Shown here in pieces: positions 16,852 to 25,112 of a stretch of 64,000 bases of DNA (positions are counted from its first letter, which is position 1; the number at the start of each line of letters is the position of its first letter). Under the pieces are notes generated by a model. The model did no database searches, was not told where the DNA came from, and worked only from the letters and a program-made list of their open reading frames with translations. Source of the DNA: Candidatus Harrisonbacteria bacterium CG10_big_fil_rev_8_21_14_0_10_40_38 (GTDB lineage: Bacteria; Patescibacteriota; Minisyncoccia; UBA6257; 1-14-0-10-40-38); the NCBI GenBank assembly GCA_002773535.1, contig PFAZ01000001.1:19226-83225 (forward strand). The letters are read 5' to 3'. The position numbers and the translations under genes are program-made.

Positions 16852-17043
16852 ACATGTTTTGGACAATCATTATCATTTTATCATTCTCTGGATTCTCGGA
16901 TTTAGTTTCAAAATTGGAGGAAATTTAATCCACGCATTACTTGTTATTGCGCTCATTATATTTATCATCCAACTCGTAACTTGAACAAACCCAATTAGTT
17001 CCCCCATTACTCGGTTCCAAAAAGGAAAACGTAAACAATAAAA

Positions 17044-17072
17044 ATACCCGCCATATAGCGGGTATTTTTATT
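17044..17072. terminator. Bidirectional intrinsic terminator (terminates tRNA-Lys on the - strand)
   Basis: atacccgc-catata-gcgggtat stem-loop flanked by an A-run and a T-run. Confidence 0.65.
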
Positions 17073-17077
17073 GTTTG

Positions 17078-17148
17078 TGCCCCCACATGGAATCGAACCA
17101 TGATCAACTGCTTAAAAGGCAGCTGCTTTGCCACTAAGCTATGGGGGC
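17078..17148 (-). tRNA. tRNA-Lys (anticodon UUU), 71 nt, no encoded CCA
   Basis: The reverse complement folds as GCCCCCA-TA-GCTT-AGTGGCA-AAGC-A-GCTGC-CTTTTAA-GCAGT-TGAT-CATGG-TTCGATT-CCATG-TGGGGGC-A, a canonical cloverleaf with a TTCGA T-loop. Confidence 0.85.
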
Positions 17149-17397
17149 ATTAAAATCCTCGATAAGCTTCCTTACTGTAATGCCTCCTTTCTGTTTTTTC
17201 AACCATTTTTCATATCTTAAGTCAGATTGCCCATCTCTAAATTCTTTTTGAAAAATAAGAATTAATGGAATTCGATATCTTGTAGAAATATTTTTACCGG
17301 AATTATGCTCCTCAATTCTTTTTTTAACGTTTGAAGTCGAGCCAACATATCTCCTTCCATCCTTGCTACTTTTTAATATGTAAACAAAGTGCGGCAT
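17134..17397 (-). CDS. Small GIY-YIG nuclease-domain protein (87 aa)
   Basis: FVYILKSSKDGRRYVGSTSNVKKRIEEHNSG is the GIY-YIG motif; the last four codons overlap the 5' end of tRNA-Lys. Confidence 0.8.
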   Translation of the reverse strand: MPHFVYILKSSKDGRRYVGSTSNVKKRIEEHNSGKNISTRYRIPLILIFQKEFRDGQSDLRYEKWLKKQKGGITVRKLIEDFNAPIA

Positions 17398-17426
17398 ATC
17401 AACTACCTATTTTCTATCTCAAGGAA

Positions 17427-17480
17427 TTTGCCACTAAGTCCCGCGAAGCGGGATCCCGCCCTGCGGCGATTATGGGGGCA
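17427..17480. repeat. Duplicated 5' fragment of the tRNA-Lys gene (12 + 10 nt) interrupted by a 32-nt hairpin-forming insert
   Basis: tttgccactaag + [tcccgcgaagcgggatcccgccctgcggcgat] + tatgggggca matches 17127..17138 and 17140..17149 of the intact tRNA. Confidence 0.65.
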
Positions 17481-17573
17481 AAGGTATAAAAACTTTAACC
17501 TGTTCTTAAAATTTTTTCAAATTTCTCGTTACATTCTCCTTGTCGCTTTTGGCATCAAACATCAAAAAGAATC

Positions 17574-24849: not shown

Positions 24850-25112
24850 CCATGCGGTATAAAAAAATACCGTAAGTCCATTCCCACTCCCCAAATACAG
24901 AGAAAGCAACACAACCAAGTTCCCAATCTCCCCGCTCTACGGGGAGAGCAGGGAACTACCTTAAGTCCAACTTTCTTTGAAGGCGTCTTCTTAAGTCCTT
25001 GAACGGATTACGGAGGCTGTTTTGGCATGGTCCCCCGCAAACGCGGGGGCAAAACAGCCGGAGTCCTCGGAGTCCAGCGCTGGCTGGACGAGAATGAGCG
25101 AAAGGACTTAAG
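24850..25112. ncRNA. Highly structured intergenic element (candidate ncRNA or efp 3'-UTR structure); strand undetermined
   Basis: Perfect helices: tcttcttaagtcctt(24999-25013)/aaggacttaagaaga(25097-25111); ggctgttttg/caaaacagcc; cccccgc-aaac-gcggggg; gtccagc-gctg-gctggac; tctccccg-ctcta-cggggaga nested in agttccc/gggaact. Confidence 0.35.

Follow-up and report, generated by a model that had tools for sequence, protein, structure and literature searches.

The locus analysed here lies in a 64,000-nucleotide (nt) stretch of contig PFAZ01000001.1 from Candidatus Harrisonbacteria bacterium CG10_big_fil_rev_8_21_14_0_10_40_38 (this whole stretch is the window, and positions are those within it). 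It consists of a small GIY-YIG gene that overlaps an intact tRNA-Lys(UUU) gene and is preceded by a broken second copy of the 5' part of the same tRNA, called the orphan below; together they form the cassette, all parts of which are read from the minus strand. The intact tRNA-Lys gene is placed at 17077..17148 by ARAGORN and at 17078..17148 by the Rfam tRNA model (74.2 bits), and the GIY-YIG open reading frame (ORF), which starts with ATG and encodes 87 amino acids (aa), occupies 17134..17397 (ORF list and Pfam). The ORF takes its final sense codons from tRNA nt 1-12 and its stop, TAG, from nt 13-15 of the same gene. Beyond the opposite end of the ORF, the orphan comprises two blocks that are both 100% identical to the intact gene, namely block 1 at 17471..17480 (tRNA nt -1 to 9, TGCCCCCATA) and block 2 at 17427..17438 (tRNA nt 11-22, CTTAGTGGCAAA). 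As repeat pairs, TTTGCCACTAAG is found at 17127-17138 and 17427-17438, and TATGGGGGCA at 17140-17149 and 17471-17480; the 12-mer TTTGCCACTAAG has no further occurrence on either strand of the window. Block 2 contains the GGCAAA D-loop variant, which is lineage-specific and matches the tRNA-Lys of its own genome rather than the tRNAs of its relatives.

The two blocks of the orphan are separated by 32 nt (17439..17470, from sequence reading), which stand in place of G10. On the minus strand this insert reads A, followed by TCGCCGC-AG-GGCGGGA (17469..17454, a degenerate module) and TCCCGC-TTC-GCGGGA (17453..17439, an intact module), with an internal repeat of 77% identity. To judge from its sequence, the insert is a pair of tandem GC-hairpin modules of a TCCCGC(C) class, which is the signature of the wider class of loci described below. 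The two small hairpins reported in the earlier note on this DNA are present, with stems of 6 bp (TCCCGC-TTC-GCGGGA) and 4 bp (CGCC-GCAG-GGCG), but their folding energy is not exceptional: compared with shuffles, the region has a z score of -0.7 as RNA and -0.9 as DNA, and RNAfold favours a single long imperfect hairpin over two small ones. Because the folding energy is not significant, the case for the hairpins is carried by the comparative data and not by energy. Between the orphan and the ATG lies a spacer, or 5' untranslated region (UTR), of 29 nt (17398..17426, from sequence reading). A promoter-like site (TTGAAA, 17 nt spacer, TAAAGT; 17492..17520), found as a pattern match in a consensus scan, ends 12 nt upstream of the orphan and is probably the original tRNA promoter, which now drives the whole unit. 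A second promoter-like site (TTGAAA, 17 nt spacer, TACAGT; 17174..17202), a low-confidence pattern match within the 3' end of the ORF, lies 25 nt upstream of the intact tRNA-Lys gene.

With the one reservation that folding energy alone does not make the hairpins significant, the observation in the earlier note was borne out in full. The ORF ends within the tRNA-Lys 5' end at the coordinates given there, the tRNA 5' part recurs at 17427..17480 with a split of 32 nt, and the segment between the repeats carries the GIY-YIG gene alone, with no other ORF of at least 60 aa confined to it. The fragment match also exceeds background, in that, when the 600 nt upstream of tRNA-Lys were shuffled 20,000 times, a single shuffle contained two collinear shared 9-mers within 80 nt. 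Of the two tRNA copies, the intact one is called by both ARAGORN and Rfam, whereas the orphan (17427-17480) gave no ARAGORN call and no Rfam tRNA match at E<=10. Three other assemblies (two from ENA and one from JGI) share the same 1.7 kb at 100% identity, and it is therefore not an assembly artefact. Within the 64 kb there are no further GIY-YIG genes, and no further copies of the hairpin insert were found with up to 3 mismatches.

The 87-aa protein matches the Pfam GIY-YIG family (PF01541; E=5.7e-13, 49.4 bits, with the cutoff at 22.6) over residues 3-70, and the Pfam search gave no second domain and no auxiliary DNA-binding domain. Its sequence is 100% identical to that of an NCBI protein from Candidatus Harrisonbacteria. 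Residues Y6, Y17, G19, R27, H31 and E63 are invariant in 23 homologues, the window protein included, so that the tyrosines of the GIY and YIG motifs and the catalytic Arg and Glu are all present. In profile searches, the nearest structures are the UPF0213 proteins BH0048 (1zg2; 2e-18) and EF2693 (1ywl; 4.6e-14), followed by eukaryotic SLX1 (4e-5), and there was no match to I-TevI or UvrC at E<=0.01. The AlphaFold2 model is a single beta-beta-alpha-beta-alpha-alpha domain with a predicted local distance difference test (pLDDT) score of 90; its template modelling (TM) scores of 0.62-0.67 against 1zg2 and the Slx1 nuclease domain are ahead of those against I-TevI and UvrC, and Foldseek gives the same order (1zg2, 3e-5; Slx1, 3e-3 to 1e-2; I-TevI, 0.12; UvrC, 0.37). 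By sequence and predicted fold, the protein is a minimal standalone Slx1-like/UPF0213 GIY-YIG domain and a predicted nuclease. Searches of NCBIfam, PADLOC and PHROGs returned only sub-threshold generic GIY-YIG or homing-endonuclease similarity, with no defence system or named family. The family is large, with 8,734 cluster representatives at 50% identity and E<=1e-10.

Several other features of the window border on this locus or resemble parts of it. A terminator hairpin of tRNA-Lys, found by repeat and consensus scans, lies at 17033..17076 (minus strand); since it is a perfect palindrome, it probably also serves the convergent sigma-factor gene on the plus strand. At 16995..17021 (minus strand), 79 nt downstream of the tRNA-Lys 3' end, TGGGGGAACTAA agrees with TGGGGGCACAAA at 10/12 positions; it is a low-confidence candidate for a degenerate tRNA 3'-end remnant and is too weak to call. 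The window has four other GC-rich hairpin sites, none of which belongs to the TCCCGC(C) class, and two of which are followed by T runs and are terminator-like. The site at 25032 has a related CCCCCGC stem, and the apparently intergenic interval around it (24990-25110) holds a nested GC-rich stem-loop, GGCTGTTTTG ... CCCCCGCAAACGCGGGGG ... CAAAACAGCC, which gave no Rfam match even at E<=1 and may represent a small RNA that has escaped annotation or a structure resembling a terminator.

Recurrence beside tRNA and tmRNA genes

Far from being a single curiosity, as it had first appeared, the locus belongs to a large class with dozens of homologous loci (given below as L numbers). The loci compared are the best-scoring 80 of each scan, which is a non-random choice, and the fractions are not population estimates. 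The genome set, with one genome per species, comprises 79 loci with 86 homologous ORFs, which were examined with ARAGORN and short-word BLAST. A co-oriented tRNA gene adjoins 68 of the 86 ORFs, and an opposite-strand tRNA adjoins none (0/86). Among the 68 tRNA-adjoining ORFs, the tRNA is found at the 3' end of the ORF in 41 and within 250 nt upstream in 43. A second copy of the same tRNA, complete or partial, stands across the ORF in 52/86 cases, and GC hairpins are present in 41 of these 52 loci. The closest homologues of the window protein, L004/L005 (68% identity) and L006 (52%), likewise lie directly upstream of tRNA-Lys(UUU) and have an upstream tRNA-Lys fragment with a GC hairpin; this fragment runs through nt 1-22, continues with CCCCGC(A/T)TTGCGGGG, and after that reads as an anticodon-loop segment, CTTTTAAGCA.

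Over the genome and metagenome sets together, the partner tRNAs represent 20 isotypes, including Pro, Lys, Met, Gln, Glu, Trp, Tyr, Ser, Leu, Cys, Arg, His, Thr, Gly, Ala, Asp, Asn and Phe, and the hosts belong to many phyla of the Candidate Phyla Radiation (CPR), to Bacteroidota and Ignavibacteria, and to others. The linkage is not family-wide, since it was found for 27/85 ORFs in the metagenome sample and for 0/38 on viral contigs. As none of the 38 viral homologues lies beside a tRNA gene, a phage origin of the tRNA-linked form is not supported.

Transfer-messenger RNA (tmRNA) genes are also found as partners. In loci L105 (601-870; tmRNA at 946-1353) and L107 (601-876; tmRNA at 1008-1419), Rfam identifies a tmRNA downstream of the minigene with 100 and 86 bits, respectively, and this adjacency indicates that the class targets the tRNA-like tmRNA gene too. 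In three metagenomic loci (L105, L107 and L122), the GIY-YIG minigene stands downstream of an apparent smpB 3' end, the translated tail of which was read by eye, and AT-rich hairpin repeats lie between minigene and tmRNA.

Other members have no tRNA beside them. In L111, L113/L114 and L116 (~560-870), the ORF is located inside a long inverted repeat, for example CCCGGTAGTACAACTTCGAG ... CTCGAAGTTGTCCTACCGGG, and the sequences look as though the ORF had been placed into a hairpin loop.

Anatomy of the redundant tRNA copies

Two layouts recur among the tRNA-linked loci. In the CPR-type layout, to which the window belongs, a 5' tRNA fragment is followed by the ORF and then by the intact tRNA; the last tRNA position of the fragment falls in the D region, the anticodon loop or the T loop, and the GC hairpin lies 11-41 nt before the ATG, immediately ahead of the last 10-17 nt of tRNA sequence. 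In the layout of Bacteroidota and Ignavibacteria, the intact tRNA with its terminator comes first, followed by the ORF and by a second copy that is entered by the ORF end. The D arm of this second copy is replaced by GCCCCGCC-N3-5-GGCGGGGC, sometimes with further hairpins in the T arm. The copy with a hairpin for a D arm is still called a tRNA by ARAGORN, and it scores 52.8 bits in Rfam compared with 70 for the intact copy.

The hairpins fall into a few recurrent stem classes, CCCCGCC/GGCGGGG, TCCCGC(C), CCCCGC and CCTGCC, which are shared across phyla, while the loops are free to vary. Of 133 hairpins with a perfect stem of at least 6 bp located no more than 200 nt from the ORFs, the arm CCCCGCC is carried by 35, and in 118 the C-rich arm is on the 5' side. 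The 32-nt insert of the window is thus no incidental interruption and holds two copies of a module class that recurs in dozens of loci. Counts of G-T versus A-C stem mismatches, which bear on selection at the RNA or the DNA level, were uninformative because the stems are nearly always perfect.

The modules are present within tRNA copies in two modes. In the first, an arm is swapped for a hairpin of similar size, with inserted/replaced lengths of 19/20, 19/20, 17/17, 18/17, 12/13, 15/13, 14/12 and similar pairs. In the second, a hairpin is purely inserted and no target bases are lost: the invariant 20-mer CCTGCCTGC(C/A)GG(C/T)AGGCAGG is found in copies of tRNA-His (L048), tRNA-Ser (L057/L061), tRNA-Arg (L084, from the isolate Flavobacterium sp. 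XGLA_31) and tRNA-Gln (L159), and also in a third pseudo-copy of L069. The overlap of ORF and tRNA is similarly recurrent, since the stop codon lies within the adjoining tRNA in 36/54 loci, 18 of which use the universal U8-A9-G10 as TAG. In addition, 15/54 loci repeat the tRNA 3' end, as stretches of 13-21 nt with 100% identity located 50-240 nt downstream of the intact tRNA.

A number of variants of this anatomy were also observed. In the clade of L042 (1043-1200), L064 (1044-1200), L071 (1041-1200) and L086 (1012-1165), a conserved spacer of ~160 nt replaces the GC hairpins; it begins right at the upstream tRNA's 3' end (CTGATATTCGTTTA ... AATATCAG ...) and contains long-range complementary segments, and it may be an undescribed structured RNA. 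Rfam searches, in gathering mode over the whole window and in E-value mode over the locus and 11 related loci, matched tRNA and tmRNA only, with no known ribozyme or leader family for the leaders or for the 160-nt spacer. L065 has two 100% identical 97-nt tRNA-Pro-like genes around its ORF (1085-1181 and 1446-1542), both with an extra hairpin of ~22 nt between the D arm and the anticodon arm. In L038 (~1580-1720), L047 (~1575-1655) and L159 (~510-670), what is left of a T arm (GGAGGATTCGAA ... GAATCC together with the acceptor 3' strand) stands 3' of the intact tRNA and terminator, and its T loop is split by a GC-rich insert of 60-130 nt. L158 (915-1020) carries tandem mini-tRNAs, each made of tRNA-Trp nt 21-36, CCCGCC-TGA-GGCGGG and nt 54-76 and followed by the same 19-nt trailer. 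In L132, the promoter region of the tRNA, CGTATAAT ... GTTGT, occurs twice (540-560 and 860-880) along with the tRNA 5' part; one copy precedes the orphan, and the other, within the 3' end of the ORF, precedes the intact tRNA-Glu. Finally, the leaders of L045 (1018-1200) and L015 (1017-1200), from the tRNA fragment to the ORF, contain 2-3.5 tandem repeats of hairpin-containing units of 45-60 nt. On account of these repeats, an arrangement like that of type III toxins and their RNA antitoxins was considered; no family match supports it.

Movement between sites and selection

The earlier note had proposed a minimal GIY-YIG cassette of mobile character, set in a tRNA gene with a duplicated 5' part, and this is supported by relatives that lack the cassette. 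In genomes whose SecD is 63-67% identical to that of the window, a near-identical tRNA-Lys(UUU) gene lies beside secD, in the same orientation in L090. At these empty secD/tRNA-Lys sites nothing resembles a GIY-YIG gene (tblastn E>0.2), and additional fragments of tRNA-Lys and hairpins of the class are likewise absent; the arrangement is accordingly not universally fixed in relatives.

Movement of the cassette as a unit is indicated by two comparisons. L032 and L069, which belong to different CPR lineages, share 91.6% nt identity exactly from orphan nt 1 to the 3' end of tRNA-Gln, although they lie in unrelated flanks; the two host tRNAs have different anticodon stems, whereas orphan, hairpin and ORF are almost the same. 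Consequently, the orphan and hairpin travel with the ORF, which argues against a target-site duplication made on the spot, as the earlier note would have it. Similarly, L064 (after tRNA-Leu) and L071 (after tRNA-Glu) carry the same cassette, with 84% nt and 87% protein identity. The protein clades otherwise follow the tRNA isotype, with a Bacteroidota clade at tRNA-Pro and a Lys clade that includes the window, as would follow if insertion is guided by tRNA homology or specificity. In some loci the parts form tandem arrays, in the orders tRNA-ORF-tRNA-ORF-tRNA (L009) and ORF-ORF-tRNA (L081 and L084), and these arrays and the fragment debris fit repeated breakage and repair at tRNA genes.

The ratio of nonsynonymous to synonymous substitution rates (dN/dS) is 0.02-0.24 in 8 pairs, and on these alignments the protein is under purifying selection. 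In the pair L057/L061, which has syntenic flanks and is vertically inherited, dN/dS is 0.02. Between these two loci, the leader (orphan, hairpin and spacer) is identical at 48/49 positions, compared with 71/83 third codon positions and 108/161 positions of the upstream intergenic region, and the L057 orphan matches the D loop of the L061 tRNA and not that of its own adjoining tRNA. L043 and L049 share the segment TCTCCAA-hairpin-CGAATCC at 32/32 positions, and in both it flanks the ORF plus tRNA on either side. The leader identity of the first pair and the 32/32 repeat of the second imply that the hairpin-bearing fragment is constrained and is not a decaying pseudogene.

Interpretation and relation to known systems

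The class occurs at many tRNA isotypes and at tmRNA genes, relatives offer empty sites, and the same cassette is found in unrelated flanks and at different tRNAs. Based on these observations, we consider it probable, though well short of certain, that the locus is a compact homing-type selfish cassette that colonises tRNA genes while one intact copy is kept, and that it is built on a GIY-YIG protein consisting of the catalytic domain only. The cassette sits inside the tRNA-Lys transcription unit, in the order promoter-like site, broken orphan, leader, ORF and intact tRNA, and would be transcribed from the tRNA promoter, for which the promoter-like site 12 nt upstream of the orphan is the candidate. 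In this position the tRNA would stay working for the host, and the nuclease gene would gain a strong promoter as well as tRNA-derived homology on both sides. The nuclease would then break cassette-free tRNA genes, or DNA structures formed by them, and repair from the cassette copy, with the tRNA-derived arms as homology, would copy the ORF in; successive rounds would leave 5' and 3' tRNA orphans. Since RNase P would cut ahead of the stop codon, transcripts processed in this way would have none, and, going by what is established for RNase P and tmRNA, synthesis of the nuclease may be limited further.

The hairpin modules are regarded as part of this system and not as decay, and their role is the weakest step of the mechanism. 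In the first place, they may break up the direct repeat or the nuclease site in the redundant copy, so that neither deletion nor re-cutting follows. Less probably, they may act as 5'-UTR hairpins that limit expression of the nuclease from the tRNA promoter, by analogy with free-standing endonuclease genes, and, as the third choice, they may be a binding or cleavage site for a structure-specific nuclease.

Several points weigh against the homing-type cassette. To our knowledge, neither a target nor a cleavage activity has been described for the family, and the separate DNA-binding module of classical GIY-YIG homing enzymes is missing here; given that the module is missing and cleavage specificity is only proposed, the locus is not filed as a member of the homing endonucleases. 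The intact tRNA beside the ORF should carry any target that lies wholly within the tRNA, and self-immunity is thus not accounted for. Nor does homing explain where hairpin stems that are identical between different tRNAs and phyla come from; we know of no mechanism that sets the same short palindromes, in register, into different tRNAs. In addition, the selection on L057/L061 exceeds what a fixed selfish gene would lead one to expect and is in keeping with a function useful to the host. The presence or absence of the cassette at a conserved site is seen between relatives at 63-67% SecD identity, the closest available, and since flanks at this distance are unalignable, exact insertion boundaries cannot be drawn. 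The sampling of best-scoring loci and the limited tRNA linkage in the metagenome and viral samples count on the same side.

On a second reading, the nuclease serves the host in the metabolism of tRNAs or tRNA genes (processing, repair or quality control), is co-transcribed with the tRNA, and has a leader that acts as a cis-regulatory or decoy RNA. Besides the strong selection, which includes the vertically inherited syntenic pair with a dN/dS of 0.02, a leader conserved beyond synonymous sites would be expected of such a module, as would equal-length in-register hairpins that look as if tRNA-like geometry were being kept (52.8 bits for the Bacteroidota copies). The stop inside the tRNA in 36/54 loci ties translation to tRNA 5' processing, and the fusion of a prokaryotic Slx1-like domain to a TrmH-type tRNA methyltransferase has led earlier authors to propose a place in RNA metabolism (PMC1564403). 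The distribution, however, is patchy, with empty sites, at least 20 partner tRNAs plus tmRNA, tandem arrays and debris on both sides; one cassette is found in unrelated flanks and at different tRNAs; and the window orphan, with nt 1-9 and 11-22 only, cannot take a tRNA-like fold. A host function of this kind is therefore rather unlikely in our view.

On another reading, the GC modules are the real substrates of the Slx1-like nuclease, and hairpins would be inserted into tRNA copies or exchanged for arms, so that these copies are duplicated and rearranged by a new mobile system loosely comparable to that of repetitive extragenic palindromes (REPs) and REP-associated tyrosine transposases (RAYTs). 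This would suit the occurrence of the same stems, with variable loops, across phyla and isotypes, the addition of the invariant 20-mer without base loss in tRNA-His, Ser, Arg and Gln copies of different phyla, and the length-matched arm swaps (19/20, 17/17, 18/17, 15/13). It would also suit the presence of the same hairpin with its flank on both sides of the ORF plus tRNA in L043, L049, L052 and L060, the nearest fold being that of Slx1, a branched-DNA nuclease, and the location of some ORFs within long inverted repeats (L111, L113 and L116). Against this reading, GIY-YIG enzymes cut DNA and are not known to rejoin it, the modules are not dispersed, with none of the class beyond the orphan in the 64-kb window, and the clade of L042, L064, L071 and L086 has the 160-nt structured spacer in place of a GC hairpin. 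We hold this reading to be distinctly unlikely. Put more generally, the modules and the minimal Slx1-like nuclease might together form a hitherto unrecognised, hairpin-directed mobile system that specifically remodels tRNA and tmRNA genes by DNA structure (hairpin, cruciform or cloverleaf) and not by sequence, swapping arms in register and duplicating tRNA genes; this wider proposal is offered tentatively, as a possible but somewhat improbable one. The likeness to REPs and RAYTs lies in short GC-rich palindromes that are tied to, and can flank, a small nuclease-type gene. RAYTs belong to the Y1 (HUH) transposases and REPs occur as hundreds of dispersed copies, whereas the hairpins described here are confined to tRNA pseudo-copies beside the gene, with no dispersed copies in 64 kb.

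Integration by an integrase, with the repeats as attL and attR, was the analogy drawn in the earlier note and is now very improbable. The att repeat of an integrase usually comes from the 3' part of the tRNA; here the repeat is the 5' part, split by 32 nt and with G10 replaced, and the fragments of relatives reach varied tRNA positions (22, 28, 35, 40 and 60) and always carry hairpin modules. Direct repeats do surround the segment of ~330 bp, but its sole ORF of at least 60 aa is the 87-aa nuclease, so that neither a recombinase nor a clean direct repeat is at hand. tRNA and tmRNA genes are classic and preferred integration sites, at which a partial tRNA is left beside an intact one, whereas such integration needs a recombinase, involves elements of kilobases and gives a clean direct repeat (PMC9897764). 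As for chance similarity or an assembly artefact, the non-significant folding energies of the hairpins are all that speaks for it, and its probability is negligible in view of the 1/20,000 shuffles that give even a weaker pattern, the identical sequence in three other assemblies and the same architecture in dozens of loci.

If the homing-type cassette is accepted as the working interpretation, its function is most like that of a free-standing homing endonuclease gene, and by analogy the nearest named case would be SegB in the tRNA gene cluster of phage T4. Seg proteins are ~200 aa or more in length, have DNA-binding modules and are phage-borne. SegB is a free-standing GIY-YIG homing endonuclease gene in the T4 tRNA gene cluster, and, going by the abstract, it agrees with the present case in that a GIY-YIG gene stands among tRNA genes with no intron, and in that SegB spreads selfishly with its flanks by break repair (PMC2330249). 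Duplicated tRNA fragments and hairpin modules are not described for SegB in that abstract (PMC2330249). Here, the gene encodes an 87-aa catalytic domain of the Slx1/UPF0213 branch and lies on bacterial chromosomes, and 0/38 viral homologues are tRNA-adjacent.

In architecture, the nearest parallels appear to be endonuclease-fractured genes and the fungal mitochondrial mobile ORFs that partially duplicate their target. Fungal mitochondrial mobile endonuclease ORFs, such as those at Allomyces atp6 and in Glomus, carry a partial target copy, and the displaced native part becomes a pseudogene. These examples share with the present locus a partial target duplication, one working copy and one orphan, and GC-rich or double-hairpin elements reported nearby, and they differ in being organellar and in their protein-coding targets and larger enzymes; an in-register swap of arms for hairpins is not known from them. 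In fractured genes, likewise, an endonuclease gene is wedged into a host gene and 5'-UTR hairpins are recurrent, such hairpins being found for free-standing endonuclease genes at 15/16 loci (Dassa et al. 2009, PMC2677866). There the host gene encodes a protein, split inteins keep its function, and the hairpins sequester the ribosome-binding site (PMC2677866), whereas here the tRNA host is kept working by duplication, and the GC palindromes are self-contained, replace tRNA arms and also occur 3' of the ORF.

Standalone prokaryotic Slx1-like/UPF0213 proteins (BH0048, 1zg2; EF2693, 1ywl) belong to the same family by sequence and fold and are likewise minimal domains. In the survey by Dunin-Horkawicz et al. 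2006 (PMC1564403), this family is treated as vertically inherited, with predicted roles in repair or possibly with RNA; the three passages there in which tRNA is named concern the TrmH fusion, and tRNA-gene linkage and duplicated fragments are not among the features described in them. GIY-YIG proteins have also been reported in non-intron insertions of CPR rRNA genes, mostly at the tops or bases of stem-loops (PMC11270868). The host group, the structured-RNA targets and the lack of intron features are shared with the cassette; in that study the targets are rRNA genes, the cases are sparse and were judged by the authors to lie outside homing, and tRNA is not mentioned (PMC11270868). In a full-text literature search, whose coverage excludes most subscription journals, no account was found of tRNA-flanked minimal GIY-YIG genes with hairpin-substituted tRNA copies.

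If the proposed interpretation is true, these loci represent a widespread and so far unnoticed class of selfish elements, a large subset of the sampled members of the protein family residing at tRNA genes. It would mean that the smallest GIY-YIG nucleases, which are annotated as hypothetical or as repair proteins, can be mobile without a DNA-binding domain, and it would raise the question of how minimal nucleases find tRNA genes. It would also account for many of the partial or odd tRNA predictions in CPR bacteria and Bacteroidota, including the 'tRNA-Pro' with a GC-hairpin D arm, and would make such cassettes a source of tRNA gene duplication and rearrangement.

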